A stretch of 64,000 nucleotides of DNA from an uncultured Thiothrix sp. (lineage in GTDB: Bacteria > Pseudomonadota > Gammaproteobacteria > Poriferisulfidales > GCA-002705445): positions 1,151 to 65,150 of the forward strand of contig CACJPG010000002.1 in assembly GCA_902595225.1 (NCBI GenBank), read 5' to 3'. A model generated the notes under the pieces. That model worked only from the letters and a program-made list of their open reading frames with translations, searched no databases and was not told the origin of the DNA. This document shows, piece after piece, positions 5,081 through 31,850 of the stretch. The stretch's first letter is position 1, and the number at the start of each line of letters is the position of its first letter. The position numbers and the translations under genes are program-made.

Positions 5081-6221
5081 GGCTTTTGAAAAAAACTTAG
5101 CAAGCTACTCACTTAAATCGTCTAATACTATTGGAAGAAAATACAAAGAAAATCCTCCGAAAAGAAGAACCGAATTCCAAAGAGATAGAGAACGAATAAT
5201 TCACTCTACAGCTTTTAGACGACTTGAATATAAAACCCAGGTTTTTGTAAATCATGAAGGAGATATGTACAGAACAAGATTAACCCATACTATCGAGGTC
5301 GCTCAAATTTCAAGGGCTGTTGCTAGAGCATTGAAAATTAATGAGGATTTAACTGAAGCTATATCACTTTCCCATGATTTAGGTCACACGCCTTTTGGTC
5401 ACGCAGGACAAGATATTCTAAATGAATGCATGAAAAGTTTCGGAGGTTTTGAACATAACATACAATCTTTAAGAATAGTTGATAAATTAGAAAACGTTTA
5501 TCCAAATTTTTCTGGTTTAAATCTTTGCTTTGAAACAAGAGAGGGAATTCTAAAAAAATGTAATAAGGCGCGCGCAGAAAAAATCGGTGATATTGCGAAT
5601 AGAATTTTAAACAAGGAACAATCATCTCTTGAGGCGCAAGTTACAAATTTATGTGATGAAATAGCCTATAATAACCACGACATACAGGATGGTATAAGAG
5701 CAAAGAAAATTTTTTTAGAGCAACTCGAAGAGGTGCCGATATTTAAAGATCAGATGGTAATTACTCTAGAACAGTATCCAAAGCTCTCAAAATCAAAAAT
5801 TGTTAATGAAACTGTTAGAAGAATAATAAATTTACTAGTGACCGATTTAATATCAAATTCGGAAAAGAATATATTAGAGCAAAATATAGAAACACCTATG
5901 GATGTAAAAAATTGTGATAGGCAGATTGTTGAATTTTCTGAGAAAATAAAAAAAGAAAGCATGACTTTAAAAAGATTTCTTCATAAAAATTTATACCAGC
6001 ATCCTGATGTGAAAATGATGACAGATAAAGCTGTAAATGTAGTAAGCAATCTATTTGAAGCATATTTAAATGATATAAATCTATTGCCCAAAGAATATTT
6101 AAAATATAATTTGGAAAAAATTAATAACAAGTCAAAGGAAAGAGTTATTTCTGATTATATTGCCGGAATGACAGACAGGTTTGCTCTGGAGGAGTATAAA
6201 AAGCTATATAGCGATAATTAG
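5064..6221 (+). CDS. dGTPase-like HD-domain triphosphohydrolase
   Basis: FQRDRERIIHSTAFRRLEYKTQV and HD motif SHDLGHTPFGHAG. The true start may be the MSEAF Met 9 nt downstream. Confidence 0.82.
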   Translation: MRNMSEAFEKNLASYSLKSSNTIGRKYKENPPKRRTEFQRDRERIIHSTAFRRLEYKTQVFVNHEGDMYRTRLTHTIEVAQISRAVARALKINEDLTEAISLSHDLGHTPFGHAGQDILNECMKSFGGFEHNIQSLRIVDKLENVYPNFSGLNLCFETREGILKKCNKARAEKIGDIANRILNKEQSSLEAQVTNLCDEIAYNNHDIQDGIRAKKIFLEQLEEVPIFKDQMVITLEQYPKLSKSKIVNETVRRIINLLVTDLISNSEKNILEQNIETPMDVKNCDRQIVEFSEKIKKESMTLKRFLHKNLYQHPDVKMMTDKAVNVVSNLFEAYLNDINLLPKEYLKYNLEKINNKSKERVISDYIAGMTDRFALEEYKKLYSDN

Positions 6222-6263
6222 ACAGAATATAAGTATTATTCAACTCATATTTGCTTTTCCGCC

Positions 6264-6293
6264 TTGAAAAATGGGTCAATCTAGTCCTATAAT
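6264..6293 (+). promoter_or_regulatory. candidate sigma-70 promoter for the gltB leader
   Basis: TTGAAA (6264-6269), 18-bp spacer, TATAAT (6288-6293). The predicted start near 6300 sits just 5-prime of the riboswitch-like element. Confidence 0.45.
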
Positions 6294-6300
6294 GGAATAG

Positions 6301-6352
6301 TACGTTCATCCTCACTAGGACGGAAGTAGGCGAAACGCCGAAGGAACGCACC
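6301..6352 (+). promoter_or_regulatory. glutamine riboswitch aptamer (glnA RNA motif)
   Basis: ACGUUCAUCCUCACUAGGACGGAAGUAGGCGAAACGCCGAAGGAACGCACC. P1 is CGUUC 6303-6307 with GAACG 6344-6348. Hairpin GGCG-AAA-CGCC at 6329-6339. Conserved cores GGACGGAAGUAGG and CGAAGGAACGC. It lies upstream of glutamate synthase. Confidence 0.75.
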
Positions 6353-6376
6353 AAACTTTATACCTAGAGTTTGGTG
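6349..6376 (+). promoter_or_regulatory. 12-bp hairpin abutting the riboswitch P1 (putative expression-platform helix)
   Basis: CACCAAACUUUA (6349-6360) pairs with UAGAGUUUGGUG (6365-6376), loop UACC. No U-tract follows. Arm sequences are duplicated downstream (6386-6394, 6416-6420). Confidence 0.5.
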
Positions 6377-6420
6377 ATCTATCATCAAACTTTAATTAAC
6401 TAATTTATTGTGAAATTGGT

Positions 6421-9400
6421 ATGGAAGATGATAGAAAAAAAATAACCGGTCTTTATGACGAAAGCTTTGAAAAAGACAGCTGTGGTTTTGGTTTAATTGC
6501 CAATATCGATAATAATCCAAGTCACTGGCTTATCAATACAGCCATTACAGCACTTGAAAGGTTAGCACATAGGGGTGCTGTGGGAGCTGATGGAACATCT
6601 GGAGATGGATGTGGAATACTTTTCAAGATACCGGAATTCTTTTTTAGATCTATTGCAAATGAAGAAAAAATAAACATAGCAAAAAACTTTGCAATAGGAA
6701 TGTTTTTCCTTAATGTTGATGCTGATAAAAGAAAATCTTCTATAAAAATAATCGAAAAAGTTATATCGGAGAGCGGATTTTCATTGGCAGGATGGAGAGA
6801 TGTACCAACTGACAAGAGCATTTGTGGTGAAGATGCTCTAAAAACATTACCTTATATTGCTCAGGCATTTATTAATCCACCAGAAAAATTAGACCCTAAA
6901 GATATTGAGTCAAGATTATTTGTTATTAGAAGGAAGATTGAAATTTTAGTCTCAAAAGAGAAAGATGAAACTTTCTATATAACCAGTTTTTCATCCAAAG
7001 TAATTTTATATAAAGGCATGATAATGCCAAAGCACCTATCTAAATTTTATTTAGACTTATCAAACGATAAACTCGAAACTTCTTTGTGTGTTTTTCATCA
7101 AAGGTTCTCCACAAATACAACACCTCAATGGAGTTTGGCACAGCCATTTAGAATGCTAGCTCATAATGGTGAAATAAATACAATTAGAGGAAATAGAAAT
7201 TGGTCTCAAGCCAGATCAAGTATTTTTAAGACATCCAAAATTCCTGAGTTAAATGAGCTTAGACCTTTAGTCTCAATGAAAGGTTCTGATTCGAAAAGTT
7301 TAGATAATATGCTAGAGGTTCTTGTAACTGGAGGAGTAAATATTTTCAAAGCTATTAAATTACTTATCCCGCCAGCTTGGAAAAGTATTCCTGAAAGCGA
7401 CTCTGATTTAAAAGCCTTTTACGAGTATAATGCAAAACATATGGAATCTTGGGATGGGCCTGCTGGCATAGTTTTAACTGATGGCAGGTATGCCGCTTGT
7501 GTAACTGATAGAAATGGATTGCGTCCTGCAAGATATATTATCACTGATGATAGGCATATAACTGTTGCGTCAGAAATCGGTGTATACGAATACGACGAAA
7601 AGAATGTCATTGAAAAAGGAAAGCTTGGCCCTGGCCAAATCATAGCGGTTGATACATCTGATGGAAAAATATTATATTCAAGTGATATTGACGAAAAACT
7701 TAAAAACAGATGTCCCTATAAAGAATGGATGGACACTGGCGCTGAATCAATGCGTAGAATCATTCCCGATAAATTTCCAGAATTAGAGCTTTTTGACGAA
7801 GCTAAAATTAAGCAATACGAAAAAATGTTTAATATGACCTATGAAGAGAAGGATCAAATATTGAAGCCCTTGTCTAAATTAAGTCAAGAGGCCATTGGTT
7901 CTATGGGAGACGATACACCTTTCCCAGTTCTCTCCGATGAGATTAGATCATTATATGACTATTTTAGACAACAGTTTGCACAAGTCACAAATCCACCCAT
8001 AGACCCAATACGTGAGAGCAACGTGATGTCTCTAGAGACATACCTTGGCCCTGACCTTAATGTCTTTGAAGAAGGTTCAAAGCATGCGCATAGGCTAACA
8101 ATAGAGTCGCCAATTTTGTCCTATAGAAAATTTAGACAACTACAAGAACTCAAAAATAAGAAATTTACGTATAAATTTCTCGACCTAAATTATGAAAACA
8201 AAATTACTTTAAAAGAAGCAATAGAAAATCTAACAAATGAAGCTTTGAAGGCTGCAAAAGAAAACAAGGTGTTTCTAATTCTTAGTGATAAAAAAATACA
8301 AAAAGGCAAATTGCCTATTCACTCACTTCTTGCAACTGGGGCTGTTCACCATGCATTAATTAAAAATGGTTTAAGAACAAAAGTTAATATTATTGTTGAA
8401 ACTGCTACAGCACGAGACTCTCATCATTGTGCAACTCTGATTGGTTATGGTGCAACCGCAATTTACCCTTATCTAGCATATCAATCATTAAACGACATGA
8501 TTATAAAGAAAACAGAAGATAATTCTGAGTTTTTTGAGGCAACAAGAAATTATAGAAAAGGAATAAACAAAGGTTTATATAAAATTTTATCAAAGATGGG
8601 TATTTCAACCATTGCAAGTTATAGAGGTTCACAGCTTTTTGAAATAGTTGGTTTGAACCAAGAGATTGTAGATTTGTGTTTTTGTGATACGACAAATAGA
8701 TTATCTGGAACAACTTTCATCGACTTACAAAAAGATCAAGAAAAACTAGCAAAAAATACTTGGAGCCAAAGAAAAGACATAAAACAGGGTGGATTACTAA
8801 AATATGTTCATGGAGAAGAATTCCATGCATATAACCCAGATGTCGTTAGAACTTTGCAAGAGGCTGTAAAAAGTGGTGATTATGAGGATTATAAAAAATA
8901 TAGTGATATTGTAAATTATAGAGAAAAAATGGTTATTAGAGATATGTTTGACTTGAAAAGCTCAAAAGATCCTATACCTCTAGATGATGTAGAACCAATT
9001 GAAGATATTCTTCGAAGATTTGATTCAGCTGGTATGTCTCTTGGAGCCCTATCTCCTGACGCTCATGAAACTCTCGCACAAGCTATGAACAAGATGGGTG
9101 GCAGGTCAAATTCTGGAGAGGGTGGAGAAGATCAAAAAAGATTTAACACAGACAAAAATTCAAAAATCAAACAAGTCGCGTCCGGTAGATTTGGTGTGAC
9201 TCCACATTATCTGGTTAACGCTGAAGTCATTCAGATAAAAATTGCCCAAGGAGCTAAACCTGGTGAGGGCGGACAACTTCCTGGAGATAAGGTTGATAAA
9301 CTTATTGCTACTCTAAGATACTCAAATCCAGGTATAACATTGATATCACCACCACCTCATCATGACATATATTCTATTGAAGACTTGGCACAGCTTATTT

Positions 9401-10893
9401 TTGATTTGAAACAGGTAAATCCTGAAGCTCTTGTATCAGTGAAATTAGTTGCTGAGGCTGGAGTTGGGACTATTGCTGCTGGCGTAACAAAAGCTTATGC
9501 TGATTTGATAACAATCTCTGGATATGATGGTGGAACTGGGGCAAGTCCTTTATCCAGTATCAAGTATGCTGGAAGTCCATGGGAAATGGGCTTGTCTGAG
9601 ACACACCAAACATTAAGAGCAAGTAATTTGAGAAAAAATGTAAGACTTCAAGCAGACGGTGGTCTAAAAACTGGTTTAGATGTAATCAAAGCAGCTTCCC
9701 TAGGTGCTGAAAGCTTTGGTTTCGGCACGGGCCCAATGATTGCTATGGGTTGTAAATATCTACGAATATGTCATTTAAATAATTGTGCAACAGGTGTCGC
9801 TACTCAAAATAAAGTGCTTAGAAAATATCATTTCATAGGTAAGGATGAAATGGTAATGAATTATTTTAAATTTATTGCTCAAGAAACTAGACATATATTG
9901 GCATCTTTAGGTTTTAGAAAGTTGTCAGACATAATTGGTAAGACAGATATATTAGTAATTAAAAAAATTGATGAAGGAAAATTAAAGAATTTAGTAATTG
10001 ATCCTATTATATCTGATGCGAATGTAGATAAAGATATTGCTCACACATGTCAGGTCAAAACAAACGAACCATGGGATAAAGCAGAATTATCAAAAAAAAT
10101 AGAAAGTGATACAAAAACAGTTATAGCAGAAAAAATTGGTGGTGAATTTAGCTACTCAATTAAAAATACTGATCGATCAATCGGTGCAAATATCTCAGGT
10201 ATTATTGCAAAAAAATATGGTAACTACGGAATGTCCGAAAATCCTTTGATACTTAACTTTAAGGGAACTGCTGGGCAAAGTTTTGGGGTTTGGAATGCTG
10301 GGGGACTTCATCTTAATTTAGAGGGTGATGCAAATGATTACGTTGGAAAGGGAATGGCATCTGGGGAAATTGTTGTTCGCCCTCCAAAAAATATAAAATA
10401 TAAGACAAATGAGTCAGTAATAATAGGAAATACATGTATGTATGGGGCAACTGGTGGGAAGCTTTATGCTGCTGGTATTGCTGGAGAAAGGTTCGGAGTA
10501 AGAAACTCTGGCGCGACGGCAATAGTTGAAGGAGTAGGAGATCATGGATGTGAGTATATGACAAATGGAACAGTAATAGTGCTTGGTAAAACAGGGGTTA
10601 ATTTCGGAGCTGGAATGTCTGGAGGATTTGCAATTGTTTTAGATGAAGAAGGAACTTTTAAAAATAAATATAATCCTGAACTTGTAGAAGTCATCAAAAT
10701 TGATAAAAAGAAATATCCATTCCAAGAAACTTTTCTTAAAGAATCAATTGCTGATTATGTTGAAAAGACAAATAGTAATTGGGGAGGAATTTTATTAAAA
10801 GATTTTGATAATTATCTAGAAAAATTCCTAATTGTTAAGCCAAAAGCTATTAGTATTGAAGAAATATTCAATAAAGATAGCGTTGCGGCTTAA
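6421..10893 (+). CDS. gltB: glutamate synthase (NADPH) large subunit
   Basis: 1490 aa. Propeptide then the amidotransferase Cys (DSCGFGLIANI), FMN/Fe-S central domain, C-terminal GXGXG beta-helix (GTAGQSFGVWNAGG...). The N-terminus is enterobacterial-type. Confidence 0.96.
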   Translation: MEDDRKKITGLYDESFEKDSCGFGLIANIDNNPSHWLINTAITALERLAHRGAVGADGTSGDGCGILFKIPEFFFRSIANEEKINIAKNFAIGMFFLNVDADKRKSSIKIIEKVISESGFSLAGWRDVPTDKSICGEDALKTLPYIAQAFINPPEKLDPKDIESRLFVIRRKIEILVSKEKDETFYITSFSSKVILYKGMIMPKHLSKFYLDLSNDKLETSLCVFHQRFSTNTTPQWSLAQPFRMLAHNGEINTIRGNRNWSQARSSIFKTSKIPELNELRPLVSMKGSDSKSLDNMLEVLVTGGVNIFKAIKLLIPPAWKSIPESDSDLKAFYEYNAKHMESWDGPAGIVLTDGRYAACVTDRNGLRPARYIITDDRHITVASEIGVYEYDEKNVIEKGKLGPGQIIAVDTSDGKILYSSDIDEKLKNRCPYKEWMDTGAESMRRIIPDKFPELELFDEAKIKQYEKMFNMTYEEKDQILKPLSKLSQEAIGSMGDDTPFPVLSDEIRSLYDYFRQQFAQVTNPPIDPIRESNVMSLETYLGPDLNVFEEGSKHAHRLTIESPILSYRKFRQLQELKNKKFTYKFLDLNYENKITLKEAIENLTNEALKAAKENKVFLILSDKKIQKGKLPIHSLLATGAVHHALIKNGLRTKVNIIVETATARDSHHCATLIGYGATAIYPYLAYQSLNDMIIKKTEDNSEFFEATRNYRKGINKGLYKILSKMGISTIASYRGSQLFEIVGLNQEIVDLCFCDTTNRLSGTTFIDLQKDQEKLAKNTWSQRKDIKQGGLLKYVHGEEFHAYNPDVVRTLQEAVKSGDYEDYKKYSDIVNYREKMVIRDMFDLKSSKDPIPLDDVEPIEDILRRFDSAGMSLGALSPDAHETLAQAMNKMGGRSNSGEGGEDQKRFNTDKNSKIKQVASGRFGVTPHYLVNAEVIQIKIAQGAKPGEGGQLPGDKVDKLIATLRYSNPGITLISPPPHHDIYSIEDLAQLIFDLKQVNPEALVSVKLVAEAGVGTIAAGVTKAYADLITISGYDGGTGASPLSSIKYAGSPWEMGLSETHQTLRASNLRKNVRLQADGGLKTGLDVIKAASLGAESFGFGTGPMIAMGCKYLRICHLNNCATGVATQNKVLRKYHFIGKDEMVMNYFKFIAQETRHILASLGFRKLSDIIGKTDILVIKKIDEGKLKNLVIDPIISDANVDKDIAHTCQVKTNEPWDKAELSKKIESDTKTVIAEKIGGEFSYSIKNTDRSIGANISGIIAKKYGNYGMSENPLILNFKGTAGQSFGVWNAGGLHLNLEGDANDYVGKGMASGEIVVRPPKNIKYKTNESVIIGNTCMYGATGGKLYAAGIAGERFGVRNSGATAIVEGVGDHGCEYMTNGTVIVLGKTGVNFGAGMSGGFAIVLDEEGTFKNKYNPELVEVIKIDKKKYPFQETFLKESIADYVEKTNSNWGGILLKDFDNYLEKFLIVKPKAISIEEIFNKDSVAA

Positions 10894-10895
10894 AT

Positions 10896-12611
10896 ATGGC
10901 ACAAAGTATTCCAAAAGAATTTATCAACCATCTGCTTGAAAAAGTAAATATTGTTGATGTTATCAATGGATATGTAAAACTTGAAAAAAAAGGAAACGAT
11001 TATTGGGCAAGGTGCCCATTTCACAATGAGAAAACGTCTTCTTTCAGTGTAAGTGAAAGTAAACAGTTTTATTACTGCTTTGGTTGCGGCGCTACTGGGA
11101 ATGCTATTACTTTTATAATGGAGCATACAAATAAAACATACCCTGAAGCGATTGAAGAGTTAGCAAATTCTGTGGGAATGGATATACCCAGAACTAGAGA
11201 ATCAAATGAAAAATATGAAGCAAAAAAAACTATTCAAAATGCTTTAGAAGATGCAAAGAAGTTATTTACAGATAATTTGAAAAGGTCTGAAAAAGCAATT
11301 AATTATCTAAAAAATAGAAATATATCAGGAAACACAGCAAAACAGTTTGAAATTGGATACTCAGAGGATGATTTTCATAATCTTGGTCGTGCTTTAGGAG
11401 AAAATTATTCTGAATCGAACTTAATAGACGCCGGGTTATTAGTAAAGAAAGACAAAAACTCTTACGACAAATTTAGGGACAGAATAATGTTTCCAATCTT
11501 TGACATATACGGAAAAGTTATAGCCTTCGGCGGAAGAGATATTAGTGGGGATAAAAAAATTGATGTAGCAAAATACATGAACTCGCCTGAGACAAGTTTA
11601 TTTAGTAAGAAAAAAGTTCTTTACAACCTTCATATTGCAAAAGCGGATAAAATTTCAAAAGATACACTTTTAATAGTTGAGGGTTATATGGATGTAATTG
11701 CCCTTCATCAATCAGGAGTGAACAATGTTGTTGCAACCTTGGGCACTGCTGTTACTCCTGATAATTTAGAACAGTGTTTTAAATATACAAAAGAAATTAT
11801 TTGTTGCTTCGATGGTGATAGGGCTGGAAAAGATGCAGCTTGGAAAGGTGTAAGAAATATTATGTCTGTTATTAAAGATGGAAACAATATTAGCTTTGTT
11901 TTCTTACCCGAGGGTAGAGATCCCGATGATATTGTTAATGAGGGTGGTAAAGATTTGTGGCTTAAATATATTGAGCAGAAAGTTTCCCTGGAAGATTTTA
12001 TTTATAATAAATATTCAGATGAAGTTAATCTAGAAACTGCAGCAGGAAAAACACAGTATTTACAAAAAATAGAAGAATTATTAAAACCCTTAAAAGCACC
12101 AATTTTCAAAAAAATCCTTCACGAAAGTCTAAATGATAGAATCGGGTCAAAATATTTACCCCCATCGGAATTAAAAGATCCTAAGAAAGAAAAAATTTCA
12201 TCAAATAAAGCAAAGTCCCCTTTACAAAAAGCAATTCTTATTCTTCTTCACCATCCAAGTATAAATATTGATGAAGAGTTGTTGTCGGACAAAAGAATTG
12301 CCTCAAATGAGGGAGTAATATTATTAAAATCCATTGCTAAGAATATTAGCGAAAGCCAACCAACAAATCTCGGAAGGATCATTGAGAACTTTAGAAATGA
12401 TGAAAAAAATTATAAGACTCTTGAGAAAATAAGCGTTATGGAAACTATAGATTTAGAATGGCCTGAGAAAGAATTTAATGCTTGTCTGTGTTTAGTAATA
12501 AAAAACTTTCTTAAGGAAGAGCTCAAAAACGTTGATCCTCTGAATTTAGAGAAATTTTCTAATATACAAAGAGAGATATATGAAATTCAGGAGAAAGCCA
12601 AGAATTATTAA
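10896..12611 (+). CDS. dnaG: DNA primase
   Basis: Zn-ribbon CPFHNEKTSSFSV...YYCFGCGATGN, TOPRIM (LLIVEGYMDVIAL, CFDGDRAG). Confidence 0.95.
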   Translation: MAQSIPKEFINHLLEKVNIVDVINGYVKLEKKGNDYWARCPFHNEKTSSFSVSESKQFYYCFGCGATGNAITFIMEHTNKTYPEAIEELANSVGMDIPRTRESNEKYEAKKTIQNALEDAKKLFTDNLKRSEKAINYLKNRNISGNTAKQFEIGYSEDDFHNLGRALGENYSESNLIDAGLLVKKDKNSYDKFRDRIMFPIFDIYGKVIAFGGRDISGDKKIDVAKYMNSPETSLFSKKKVLYNLHIAKADKISKDTLLIVEGYMDVIALHQSGVNNVVATLGTAVTPDNLEQCFKYTKEIICCFDGDRAGKDAAWKGVRNIMSVIKDGNNISFVFLPEGRDPDDIVNEGGKDLWLKYIEQKVSLEDFIYNKYSDEVNLETAAGKTQYLQKIEELLKPLKAPIFKKILHESLNDRIGSKYLPPSELKDPKKEKISSNKAKSPLQKAILILLHHPSINIDEELLSDKRIASNEGVILLKSIAKNISESQPTNLGRIIENFRNDEKNYKTLEKISVMETIDLEWPEKEFNACLCLVIKNFLKEELKNVDPLNLEKFSNIQREIYEIQEKAKNY

Positions 12612-28677: not shown

Positions 28678-30084
28678 ATGTTTAATGAAGTATACGAAAA
28701 ACGTAGAATAAGATCTGTCTACTCCCCAGTAATAAATTGGGCAAAATCCTTGCCTGAGAGCACTATTTTAAAAAGAAAAAGCGAGGCAGAAAATCTTTTC
28801 AAAAAAATTGGAATAACTTTTTCAGTTTACAATAACTATGATACTTCAGAAAGACTTATTCCGTTTGATATGTTCCCAAGAATTCTTAGCAAAACAGAAT
28901 GGAAAAAAATTCAAAGTGGTGTTGTGCAAAGATCAATGGCTCTAAATGCATTTTTAAATGATATATATAATGATGGTGAAATTATAAAAGCAAAGGTCGT
29001 GCCGGCAGATTTGATTTATAAAAACCCCGCATATGAAATAAAAATGGTTGGGTTTAAAGTACCGAAAAAAATATATAGCCCAATAATTGGAACAGATATT
29101 ATTAGAGAAGATAAAAGAAACTTTAAAGTCTTGGAAGATAATTGTCGAACTCCATCAGGAGTCTCATATATGATAGAAAATAGAGAGATTATGATGAGGA
29201 TGTTTCCAGAATTATTTCAATCTTTGAAAATTGAACCAGTTGAAAATTATCCTGAAATCCTACTGAATACTTTGAAGAGCCTAACTCCTAAAAATTGTTC
29301 AAAAAATCGCAATATCGTAATTCTTACACCTGGCCCACTAAATAGCGCTTATTATGAACACAGTTTTCTGGCTGACATGATGGGCGTTGAATTAGTTCAA
29401 GGATCAGATTTGTATGTTGACCAAGGCATAACCTATATGAAAACAACAAGAGGCAGAGAAAAAGTCGATATTATTTATCGTAGAATTGATGATAATTTTA
29501 TTGACCCAATTACATTCGATAGAAATTCATGTATTGGGGTTCCAGGGTTATTTGATTCCTATAAATCAGGTAATGTAAATATATGCTCAGCGCCAGGATC
29601 AGGAATTGCTGATGACAAAGCAATATATACATACATGCCTGAAATAATAAAATTTTATTTAGGAGAAGAACCGATTCTTGAAAATATTAAAACATGGAGA
29701 TGTAGTGAAAAAAAAGATTTAGAGTATGTTGTAAAAAATTTAAAGAATTTAGTTGTCAAGGAAGTTCATGGTTCTGGTGGATATGGAATGTTAATAGGGA
29801 GTCATGCGACGAATAAACAAATATCTCATTTCAAAACAAAAATTAAGAATAATCCAAGTAATTATATCGCTCAACCAATAATAAGTCTTTCTTCGGTACC
29901 AATATTTAATAAAAAATCTTTATCACCTAGGCATGTTGATTTAAGACCATTTTGCCTTGTTGGAAGTAATTCGGTTAATTTGGTAAACGGGGCTCTTACG
30001 AGAGTTGCATTAAAAGAAGGATCACTTGTTGTTAATTCGTCTCAAGGTGGAGGCGTAAAAGATACGTGGGTCATGACAGAGTAA
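28678..30084 (+). CDS. circularly permuted type-2 ATP-grasp protein
   Basis: 468 aa. Architecture and blocks (EDNCRTPSGVSYM, VVKEVHGSGGYGMLIG, VDLRPF) fit the DUF404/DUF407 CP_ATPgrasp family. First gene of the conserved triad with alpha-E and transglutaminase. Confidence 0.8.
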   Translation: MFNEVYEKRRIRSVYSPVINWAKSLPESTILKRKSEAENLFKKIGITFSVYNNYDTSERLIPFDMFPRILSKTEWKKIQSGVVQRSMALNAFLNDIYNDGEIIKAKVVPADLIYKNPAYEIKMVGFKVPKKIYSPIIGTDIIREDKRNFKVLEDNCRTPSGVSYMIENREIMMRMFPELFQSLKIEPVENYPEILLNTLKSLTPKNCSKNRNIVILTPGPLNSAYYEHSFLADMMGVELVQGSDLYVDQGITYMKTTRGREKVDIIYRRIDDNFIDPITFDRNSCIGVPGLFDSYKSGNVNICSAPGSGIADDKAIYTYMPEIIKFYLGEEPILENIKTWRCSEKKDLEYVVKNLKNLVVKEVHGSGGYGMLIGSHATNKQISHFKTKIKNNPSNYIAQPIISLSSVPIFNKKSLSPRHVDLRPFCLVGSNSVNLVNGALTRVALKEGSLVVNSSQGGGVKDTWVMTE

Positions 30085-30087
30085 ATT

Positions 30088-31044
30088 ATGCTAAGTAGAA
30101 CTGCAGAAAATTTATATTGGACATCGAGATATATTGAAAGAGCGGATTCAATTGCTAGATTATTAGAGGTTGCGTATCGAATTAATCTTATACCCAATAC
30201 ATCTAGAACACAGAATGAGTGGACTTCTATTTTAGAAACTTCTGGCATTAAAGATGAATATATTCTTCATTACAAAGAAAATTTTAAAAAAGATAAAATT
30301 GAAAATTTTTTAATATTTGACGAAAAAAATGGCTCGTCTATTTTTGAATGTATACGAAAAGCGAGATCAAATATTAAGATGGTAAGGACTGCAGTAACTC
30401 TTGAAGTTTGGAATGCAGTTAATAGCACATTTCATGATATAGAAAAATTTAGTGAAAAAAAATACTCCTCGAGAGATTTGCCTGGGATAATAGATTTTGT
30501 TAAAAGTCGTGTGAATTTAATTAGGGGAACAATTCAAAATACGCAATTAATAGATGATACATTTGATTTTCTATCTATAGGAACATATGTAGAGAGAGCC
30601 GATTTTACAGCAAGAATAATAGACGTAAAATATTTCATACTTTTGCCAAGCAGTAATTATGTTGGCTCACAAATTGATAACTTTCAATGGACATTGATGC
30701 TCAGGTCTGTTTCAGCTTATAGAGGTTTTAAGCAAACATATGGAAATAATGGAGTAAACCATATGAATATTATTGAATTTCTTATTCTAGATATGACTTG
30801 CCCACGTTCTCTAATGTTTTCATTGGATAAAATTAACTCTCATCTAACCAATTTAAAGAAAATTTATAAAAAAAACTCAAAGGCGGAGGAAGAAATTAGC
30901 TTAATTGTTAAAAAATTTAAAAAACTTTCGGCAAAAAAAATATTGAATATAGGTTTACATGAGTTTTTATTAGAGTTTATAAGAAAATTATATTCTGTTA
31001 ATAGCAATTTACAAAATAACTATTTTTTTGGGAAAGAAAAATGA
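30088..31044 (+). CDS. alpha-E domain protein (DUF403)
   Basis: MLSRTAENLYWTSRYIERAD... and a second ERAD-type helix (GTYVERADFTARIIDV). Always follows the CP ATP-grasp gene in this operon type. Confidence 0.78.
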   Translation: MLSRTAENLYWTSRYIERADSIARLLEVAYRINLIPNTSRTQNEWTSILETSGIKDEYILHYKENFKKDKIENFLIFDEKNGSSIFECIRKARSNIKMVRTAVTLEVWNAVNSTFHDIEKFSEKKYSSRDLPGIIDFVKSRVNLIRGTIQNTQLIDDTFDFLSIGTYVERADFTARIIDVKYFILLPSSNYVGSQIDNFQWTLMLRSVSAYRGFKQTYGNNGVNHMNIIEFLILDMTCPRSLMFSLDKINSHLTNLKKIYKKNSKAEEEISLIVKKFKKLSAKKILNIGLHEFLLEFIRKLYSVNSNLQNNYFFGKEK

Positions 31045-31850
31045 AGATCAGTATAAACCACAAAACTACTTATAATTTTAGTTCAAATGTACCAAAGCTG
31101 ATGCAGTCTATTAGGCTCTACCCAAGTAATTGTAAAAATCAAAAGACAATAAGCTGGTCTATAAAATCTGATAAAGGAATGATCACAGAGTCACATAGTG
31201 ATGCATTGGGACATAAAATCTTTAACATTTATAATAAAGAAATTATAGGTAGCCAAACAATTATATCAAAAGGAATTGTTGAAACTAAAGACACTTCTGG
31301 TGTGTTAAAAGGCTTGAAAGAAAAAGTTAATACCTTATGCTTTTTAAGAGATACAGAACTAACTAAAGCATGTAGAAAAATTGATCTTCTCTCAAAAAAA
31401 TTGAGTAAGAATAAAAGTAATGAAATCTTATTTTGTCATCAAATGAACAGTGTTGTTTCACAATCAATAAAGTATATATCAGGCTCGACATCAATTTATA
31501 CCTCAGCAAGTGACTCTATAAGTCAAGGATCGGGTGTTTGTCAAGACTTCGCTCATATACTTATAAGTCTTGCAAGAAAAAATAATTTTCCAGCAAGATA
31601 CATAAGTGGTTTTTTAATGGAAGAAAATGGTAATGCTGAACAAGCAACTCATGCATGGGTAGAAATATTTATAAATGACCTTGGCTGGGTTGGTTTTGAC
31701 CCTTCGCACAATAAATGCATTGATGAAGGTTACGTTAGAGTGTGCTGCGGTCTTGATTCACTTGACTCTTCAATGATTAAAGGTGTAAAAACTAATTTTA
31801 ATGGAGATGAAAATTTAAAAGTTGATGTGTCAATTAGTAACTGCCAGTAA
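31041..31850 (+). CDS. transglutaminase-like cysteine peptidase-fold protein
   Basis: Bact_transglu_N-like start (KISINHKTTYNFS...RLYP). Catalytic triad blocks GVCQDFAH, THAWVE, GFDPSH. Confidence 0.85.
   Translation: MKISINHKTTYNFSSNVPKLMQSIRLYPSNCKNQKTISWSIKSDKGMITESHSDALGHKIFNIYNKEIIGSQTIISKGIVETKDTSGVLKGLKEKVNTLCFLRDTELTKACRKIDLLSKKLSKNKSNEILFCHQMNSVVSQSIKYISGSTSIYTSASDSISQGSGVCQDFAHILISLARKNNFPARYISGFLMEENGNAEQATHAWVEIFINDLGWVGFDPSHNKCIDEGYVRVCCGLDSLDSSMIKGVKTNFNGDENLKVDVSISNCQ

Follow-up and report, generated by a model that had tools for sequence, protein, structure and literature searches.

The 64,000-nucleotide (nt) stretch analysed here, which at its full length is called the window, comes from an uncultured Thiothrix sp. 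(contig CACJPG010000002.1, positions 1,151 to 65,150) and carries gltB, the gene for the large subunit of glutamate synthase (GOGAT). Judged from sequence, the segment 6301-6352 is a genuine type-1 glutamine riboswitch aptamer, which forms the 5' end of a gltB mRNA transcribed from its own promoter. Directly downstream, three related segments can form two alternative hairpins, A and B, which are conserved and mutually exclusive helices; the evidence for them is conservation, not covariation. The aptamer is an ordinary one; the conserved section that would read it out and the twin of the cassette ahead of gltD have not been described previously. We lean towards the reading that this section is a translational ON switch, in which a relay from hairpin A to hairpin B would open the gltB start region when glutamine is bound.

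The original prediction had assigned the leader to the glnA RNA class, and the search that it proposed with the Rfam covariance model RF01739 bore this out. The match at 6301-6352 covered model positions 1-53 of 53 with 60.6 bits (gathering score 35, E 6.4e-11) and was the sole riboswitch match in the window. All upper-case consensus positions of RF01739 are matched by the window aptamer, and the junction and E-loop blocks GGACGGAAGUAG and CGAAGGAACGC agree with the consensus exactly. P1 and two hairpins make up a three-way junction. The proposed check against the Downstream-peptide motif (Glutamine-II, RF01704) gave 13.1 bits against a gathering score of 33; the element is not a member of that class and the type-1 assignment stands. 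Glutamine-II binds the same ligand in a nearly identical pocket (PMC6698751) but has a pseudoknot architecture. The window leader gave a single aptamer match and no tandem arrangement, although other lineages do have tandems. The parts of the leader are as follows.

6301-6352, plus strand: type-1 glutamine riboswitch aptamer (glnA RNA, RF01739), full length by the Rfam covariance model
6303-6307/6344-6348, plus strand: P1, CGUUC/GAACG
6309-6312/6317-6320, plus strand: P2
6329-6339, plus strand: P3, hairpin GGCG-AAA-CGCC (arms 6329-6332/6336-6339)
6349, plus strand: C directly 3' of P1, equivalent of C60 by Rfam alignment position; first base of hairpin A
6349-6360, plus strand: segment 1, CACCAAACUUUA (consensus identical), 5' arm of hairpin A
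6365-6376, plus strand: segment 2, UAGAGUUUGGUG (consensus CUAGAGUUUGGUG), which can pair with segment 1 or segment 3
6378-6386, plus strand: UCUAUCAUC, 5' arm of helix C in this sublineage, 9/9 complementary to 6427-6435
6383-6394, plus strand: segment 3, CAUCAAACUUUA (consensus CAUCAAACUCUAG; UUUA in the window), almost a repeat of segment 1; it forms hairpin B as the 3' arm, with segment 2 as the 5' arm and 6377-6382 as the hexaloop
6399-6420, plus strand: weak local hairpin ACUAAUUU/AAAUUGGU, -3.7 kcal/mol, covering -8 to -1 of gltB
6421-6435, plus strand: gltB start codon and codons 2-5, with GAUGAUAGA at 6427-6435 (codons 3-5) as 3' arm of helix C

Metagenome contigs were scanned for the aptamer core followed by a CACCA tail. 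The scan, which was complete, gave 70 loci, and these together with genome loci and the window contained 33 gltB and 19 gltD leaders. The comparisons below use 33 distinct leaders (20 gltB and 13 gltD, the window included) from marine metagenomes and metagenome-assembled genomes (MAGs). The promoter (TATTGAATG-N-TATAAT), the aptamer and the three platform segments are common to all of them, and relatives scanned with RF01739 reached comparable scores (55-66 bits). The blocks GGACGGAAGUAG and CGAAGGAACGC are essentially invariant, with two positions that vary, C6349 is invariant, and P3 occurs with GU, GC or AU pairs. RNAalifold on these leaders recovered all three helices of the junction. The aptamer sits in the 5' leader, between the conserved promoter and gltB, and its twin lies ahead of gltD. 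An ortholog comparison of this kind had been proposed in the original prediction, and both core blocks, P1, the promoter and the platform helix proved to be conserved.

The 12-base-pair (bp) helix between 6349-6360 and 6365-6376, noted earlier with one G-U pair and the loop UACC, was confirmed and corresponds to hairpin A. The repeated words pointed out at that time (CAAACTTTA at 6352 and 6386, TTGGT at 6371 and 6416) were also found again, but the direct repeat is really 12 nt long, with CACCAAACTTTA at 6349-6360 and CATCAAACTTTA at 6383-6394. Exact matches to CAYCAAACTYT in the 64 kb are limited to those two sites and 6366-6376 on the other strand. Since the window holds no other exact copies, the three-segment repeat is a local feature, and a dispersed repeat was ruled out.

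Segments 1-3 are near-invariant in the 33 leaders, in which 98.4% of the cells of hairpin A and 95.7% of those of hairpin B are paired, and RNAalifold folded the alignment into the aptamer plus hairpin A. In the window the two hairpins are nearly isoenergetic (-13.7 kcal/mol for A, -12.8 kcal/mol for B). Loss of C6349 from hairpin A costs 3.1 kcal/mol and loss of C6349 together with A6350 costs 4.5 kcal/mol, which is enough to invert the local preference between A and B in the window. When the first 1-2 nt were withheld, B was favoured over A in 33/33 leaders. Even in the absence of ligand, the local stability of hairpin B exceeds that of A in most relatives, by 2.2 kcal/mol on average. The invariance of segments 2 and 3 would be explained by the fact that each base has two partners. 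As to the switchable platform that had been postulated for this leader, the 3' arm of the first helix does have a strongly conserved downstream partner, while the partner of the start region is a different one, as described below.

Hairpin B is followed by UUAAUUAAC in the window and by CUCUAGU or CUGGUAAG in relatives. A transcription-terminating platform, with a GC-rich hairpin and a U tract, was rejected, and the terminator scan detected no terminator-like site in 5900-6900, in agreement with the earlier remark that no U tract follows the helix. A short open reading frame (ORF) occupies 6374-6403 and runs from UUG or GUG in segment 2 through segment 3 to UAA at 6401-6403. A leader peptide starting from this UUG/GUG was dismissed, as short ORFs exist in relatives but their frame is not kept. 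An RNA-level constraint fits better, because seven leaders with a 7-nt loop shift the frame while the nucleotides stay conserved.

A complementarity that the original prediction had missed connects the platform with the gltB start: TCTATCATC at 6378-6386 can pair at 9/9 positions with GATGATAGA at 6427-6435 to form helix C. Since 6378-6386 overlaps the loop of hairpin B and the first 4 nt of segment 3, helix C excludes hairpin B. Helix C is present in the minimum free energy structure of the window, and its duplex (-12.6 kcal/mol) beats those formed with any of the other 54 window start regions. The start region has its conserved partner in segment 3 and its 5' flank and not, as previously suggested, in ACCAA of the 5' arm; the UUGGU that adjoins the AUG is specific to the sublineage. 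Most leaders have (U)AGAGUAUGA at the start, which mimics segment 2 (AGAGUUUGG) and pairs with UCA-A-ACUCU of segment 3. This pairing extends a conserved intervening hairpin, D (UAAGNU/RRCUUA), to which the 6399-6420 hairpin of the window corresponds. Variants keep the pairing, namely AAAGUUAUG with ACUUU in the leader L127 and GAAUAUG with AUUC in six leaders, and one pair of helix C is C-G in 14 sequences and U-A in 6.

When anchored at the start codon, the register of this pairing has 75% of cells paired, compared with 28-41% when the partner is slid. Duplexes of segment 3 with its own start region (-12 to +7) were also compared with those formed with 40 other window start regions; in the median, a fraction of 0.05 of these backgrounds performed equally well, and 14/33 leaders beat all 40. 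State B left the start region more accessible than state A did in 30/33 leaders at 37 °C and in 31/33 at 20 °C. The mean change in accessibility was 0.115 with the real start regions versus 0.036 with swapped-in ones. The window was the top case, with a change of 0.36 versus 0.055 ± 0.076 for swapped-in start regions. The gltB start had been noted for having essentially no Shine-Dalgarno (SD) sequence. This is true of gltB but normal in the window, where an SD-like motif precedes about 10 of the 55 long ORFs, about 45 lack one, and most start regions are plain AU-rich. As the genome is SD-poor, start-region structure rather than SD masking is expected to be the control point. Taken from sequence comparison and folding models, the coupling of segment 3 to the start region is moderately supported.

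The proposed switch is a relay of four segments, that is, segments 1, 2 and 3 and the start region. At low glutamine, hairpin A would form first, segment 3 would close the start region, and translation would be off. When glutamine is bound, C6349 would be drawn into the aptamer and the base of hairpin A would be lost. G6376 would thereby be freed to nucleate hairpin B with C6383, and with segment 3 locked in hairpin B the SD-less, AU-rich start region would open and translation would be on. The gltD twin cassette would co-regulate both GOGAT subunits. According to Ren et al., as cited in PMC6212724, C60 pairs with G23 upon glutamine binding, a transition that reportedly melts the P1-attached helix. 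The gifB riboswitch is ON by experiment (PMC6212724), and the ON direction is assigned to the gltB leader by analogy with this validated cyanobacterial switch. In the cyanobacterial gifB-type leaders that we scanned, the helix starting at the same C is formed by the tail CGCCUC and the SD GAGGCG, and in a GltB-like leader from SAR86, AGGAAGGA is directly masked by the tail helix. The homeostatic sign also fits the ON direction, because GOGAT consumes glutamine (substrate induction): GOGAT synthesis would rise with its substrate, which would give negative feedback on the glutamine pool.

Several observations weigh against the A-to-B relay or its coupling to the start. No compensatory two-sided changes were found in hairpins A or B across the 33 leaders. 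Their support consists of invariance and one-sided, wobble-compatible changes, such as C to U opposite G in 10 sequences, by which a G-U pair is kept, and shuffle controls were not exceeded. Covariation, which had been suggested as a test of the 6349-6376 helix, gave no support for it. The shuffle control was not exceeded by helix C either. The duplex test became weaker when the start region was widened to -12 to +18 (median 0.13; 6/33 leaders at or below 0.05), and in the swap-in control 11/33 leaders only were at or below 0.05. For the window leader folded as a whole, the OFF state (hairpin A plus helix C) lies about 9-10 kcal/mol below the ON state, and purely thermodynamic switching in the window was rejected. 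Kinetic, co-transcriptional control must be assumed, because this difference exceeds what binding of millimolar affinity can pay. Once hairpin A is opened, what is left of segment 1 can itself find a partner in the start region, around hairpins B and D, and in the folding models this pairing would blunt the ON state. Finally, in SAR11 the GltB and GltD proteins are 1.7-2-fold up under nitrogen limitation with unchanged mRNA (PMC3870248), which indicates that induction of GOGAT by glutamine is not universal; the comparison is limited in that SAR11 gltBD is not known to carry this element.

The same SAR11 data would suit an OFF switch, in which glutamine-stabilised P1 stacks on hairpin A and segment 3 closes the start at high glutamine, so that GOGAT would be produced chiefly under nitrogen limitation. 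No spacer separates hairpin A from P1, which makes coaxial stacking geometrically possible. In addition, since B is locally the more stable hairpin in most relatives without ligand, by the mean of 2.2 kcal/mol given above, an ON default that is turned off by the ligand is conceivable. We nevertheless regard an OFF switch as unlikely. Hairpin A begins with precisely the C whose partner upon ligand binding is G23, and the ligand is reported to melt the P1-attached helix (in the account of PMC6212724); the only validated member of equal topology is ON; and repression at high glutamine would by our reasoning amount to positive feedback on the sensed metabolite.

It is less likely still that the platform acts on mRNA fate, with state A exposing the AU-rich strand from 6377 onwards to RNase E or Rho and state B protecting it. 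The lack of an intrinsic terminator agrees with such a role, and the AU-rich linker and segment 3 are single-stranded in state A wherever they are not paired with the start region, a pairing for which the evidence is no more than moderate in about a third of leaders. In most leaders, however, segment 3 is specifically complementary to the start, and the lineage variants AGAGUAUGA, AAAGUUAUG and GAUGAUAGA keep this pairing. Furthermore, a Rho loading site would call for more C residues than the leader has.

The near-invariance of the segments, which is stronger than that of most aptamer loops and comes without covariation, would also be expected of a sequence-specific site. The segments might accordingly be recognised by a protein or small RNA, such as a nitrogen-responsive RNA-binding regulator, with incidental complementarity, but we consider this improbable. 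Two direct copies and one inverted copy giving 12-13 bp hairpins of near-equal energy are what a relay requires, the double pairing constraints on segments 2 and 3 account for the invariance, and the one-sided changes seen keep G-U pairs. A chance resemblance or a decayed, non-functional aptamer is refuted for practical purposes, as nothing was found in its favour while the E value in the window is 6.4e-11 and all invariant core positions are intact and kept across leaders whose flanking genes are only ~76% identical.

Among known systems, the translational ON switch that we favour most resembles the gifB leader of Synechocystis sp. PCC 6803 (Klahn et al. 2018, PMC6212724). Both have an aptamer of the same class with the conserved cores, a helix beginning at the C directly 3' of P1, and no terminator, and both are presumed to act on translation and to feed back negatively on the glutamine pool. 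They differ in that the gifB tail CGCCUC pairs the SD GAGGCG directly in a two-segment design, whereas the window tail pairs a decoy (segment 2) and two more segments would relay the signal to an SD-less start. In addition, the target is GOGAT instead of a glutamine synthetase (GS)-inactivating factor, the host is a heterotrophic gammaproteobacterium, and no NtcA box is present.

Marine-metagenome glnA RNAs before glutamate synthase genes (PMC2864571; Brewer et al. 2021, PMC8632094) are alike in aptamer and in the kind of downstream gene, and the present locus is very probably among these published representatives. Those reports give no organism, platform or direction, whereas the present work defines the lineage, the split gltD and gltB cassettes and the platform. 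SAR86, also a marine gammaproteobacterium, has an RF01739 aptamer (65.7 bits) before a GltB-like large subunit in CABZJI010000004.1 (L116). The protein is only 44% identical, however, and a single hairpin, CAUCUUUCU/AGGAAGGAUG, sequesters a purine-rich SD-like element there, with no three-repeat relay.

Relay-type platforms with the 1:2/2:3/3:4 logic of attenuators are exemplified by the thiamine pyrophosphate (TPP) riboswitch of Escherichia coli thiM and by the trp leader. As in these relays, mutually exclusive helices in the gltB leader would carry a change at the 3' edge of the aptamer to a distant start site. The window differs from them in its aptamer class, in its output, which would be occlusion of an SD-less start codon region and would involve neither an SD nor a terminator, and in its repeats, segment 3 being nearly identical to segment 1 and segment 2 being mimicked by the start region.

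With these results, one group of marine copies (the window and 32 distinct relatives) is assigned to a marine gammaproteobacterial lineage, while the nature and the ligand of the aptamer are unchanged. The relay can be tested by mutation, as it predicts that a one-base-pair event at the aptamer edge is relayed over ~70 nt to a start codon without SD. If true, a glutamine riboswitch from outside cyanobacteria would for the first time have a mechanistic model and an assigned direction, and RNA-based nitrogen sensing would stand in for protein regulators in oligotrophic heterotrophs. The model bears on how streamlined ocean heterotrophs sense nitrogen status, and it would supply a compact glutamine-responsive translational element for engineering.

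In the window gltB is followed directly by dnaG-rpoD (10893-12611) and no gltD adjoins it. In relatives, a same-strand gltD precedes the gltB leader by ~6.4 kb, with mrcA, aroK, aroB and dgt between them, and has its own cassette of promoter, riboswitch and platform ~8 kb upstream of gltB. In seven contigs a gltD leader and a gltB leader occur together, in the same orientation; on MDTC01139180.1 the two leaders are ~7.9 kb apart as calculated from the coordinates. On the locus L017, the riboswitch-gltD unit (336-1857) ends 85 nt before the equivalent of window position 1, and by this synteny the gltD twin of the window element would lie just upstream of the window. Whether an abundant and genome-streamlined uncultured lineage has split gltD from gltB and placed an identical cassette of upstream element, promoter, aptamer and four-segment relay before each, through which glutamine directly and co-ordinately turns on translation of both SD-less mRNAs, is to us nearly an even question, with the doubts slightly ahead.

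The CACCA tail was also found in a further 22 unrelated leaders of small ORFs. Metagenome leaders with this tail but a different platform (L125, L132, L134-L140, L163, L166, L169, L173, L178, L187, L188) have NtcA-like GTA-N8-TAC boxes upstream, the motif CACCAAUACC...AAGUAAAGGAGC, and ORFs of 30-40 amino acids (aa) (MALILIKQK... and similar). Their hosts are probably cyanobacteria or their phages.

The glnA RNA class and its association with glutamate synthase were published in 2010 (Weinberg et al., PMC2864571), glutamate synthase being one among other nitrogen genes (PMC2864571; PMC8632094). The class has been called 'exclusively' cyanobacterial among RefSeq genomes, and the hosts of the marine-metagenome copies and the direction of their regulation were stated to be unknown (PMC6212724). 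RF01739 in SAR86 was mentioned in passing in a 2025 paper (PMC12379486). Exact aptamer cores were scanned in one genome per GTDB species and gave at least 120 loci, which were grouped by record title. Among the matches listed, there were at least 47 loci in Cyanobacteria, at least 22 in SAR86, at least 12 in other Gammaproteobacteria, at least 33 in Alphaproteobacteria (SAR11, SAR116, Rhodobacterales and others), at least 4 in other non-cyanobacterial taxa, and at least 2 that were unlabelled. The genes downstream of the proteobacterial loci listed included amt, GS-II-like glnA, gltD, gltB, genes for small YRG-motif proteins and an ATP-grasp operon. The broadened host range suggested by the original prediction thus goes beyond published statements, while public SAR86, SAR11 and SAR116 genomes already hold many copies; it is new against literature such as the 'exclusively cyanobacterial' statement, not against databases.

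Some of these copies have arrangements of their own. In amt leaders of SAR11 and SAR116 (L023, L035, L042, L010, L002), two aptamers stand in tandem, the second being a variant with UCGGAAGUA. The CAUGC tail of the first aptamer is complementary to GCAUG after the second, and the resulting long-range helix encloses aptamer 2. In SAR11, one Amt protein was found only in nitrogen-replete cells with its mRNA unchanged, and its leader was described as a 'novel riboswitch-like structure' (Smith et al. 2013). In SAR86 (L090, L101, L001, L115), the riboswitch precedes the gene for a secreted protein of ~200 aa adjoining gltB. The gltB genes of these four loci have 67-70% DNA identity to the window gltB and no aptamer of their own above the Rfam threshold. 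RF01739 aptamers, single or tandem, also occur in a Kiritimatiellaceae MAG (L117), in the betaproteobacterium UBA3031 (L107) and in Rhodospirillaceae (L095); in L117, a GltB-like gene of 38% identity lies ~270 nt downstream.

The window has a G+C content of ~32% and the gene order mrcA (minus strand), aroK, aroB, dgt, riboswitch-gltB, dnaG and rpoD. TARA Oceans contig CEPT01001774.1 is 97.7% identical across 9.66 kb, and other relatives have about 76-79% nucleotide identity with the gene order kept. The 199-bp spacer between dgt and gltB and the promoter hexamers, like P1 and the GGCG/CGCC hairpin, lie exactly where the original prediction had placed them. The surroundings of the leader are as follows.

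6221: end of dgt, separated from the gltB start at 6421 by a spacer of 199 bp
6227-6243, plus strand: upstream element ATATAAGTATTATTCAA, ~20 nt upstream of the -35 hexamer
6264-6293, plus strand: sigma-70-type promoter, TTGAAA (6264-6269), 18 nt, TATAAT (6288-6293), 11/12 positions matched
6421-10893, plus strand: gltB, glutamate synthase large subunit, 1490 aa (NF008730, 2440 bits)

The promoter scan found 5 promoter-like sites where 4.5 were expected from shuffles, and since shuffles give as many such sites, the 11/12 match alone is not evidence. TTGAAT-17/18-TATAAT is, however, kept at the corresponding position in 36/36 distinct upstream sequences (21 gltB and 15 gltD), whose conserved promoter text reads TATTGAATG...TAGTCCTATAAT. 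Transcription is predicted to start at about 6299-6301, 2-4 nt ahead of P1. A ATATAAGTTATATTCAA-like upstream element occurs at equal distance in most gltB and gltD leaders, and the 6227-6243 element is possibly a transcription-factor site common to gltB and gltD. TATTCAA within the ATATAAGTATTATTCAA region is the reverse complement of the TTGAATA-like -35 region. A TTG-initiated ORF of 69 aa on the minus strand (6145-6354), which overlaps the dgt 3' end, the promoter and the aptamer, was taken as spurious.

Elsewhere in the window, an operon at 28678-31850 encodes a circularly permuted ATP-grasp protein (PF14403), an Alpha-E protein (PF04168) and a transglutaminase-like protein. No riboswitch was found ahead of it in the window. 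Its PF14403 gene has ~67% DNA identity to the gene for a 468-aa protein of SAR11-type single-cell genomes, many of which (e.g. L004, L050, L053) have a glutamine riboswitch in front of that gene.

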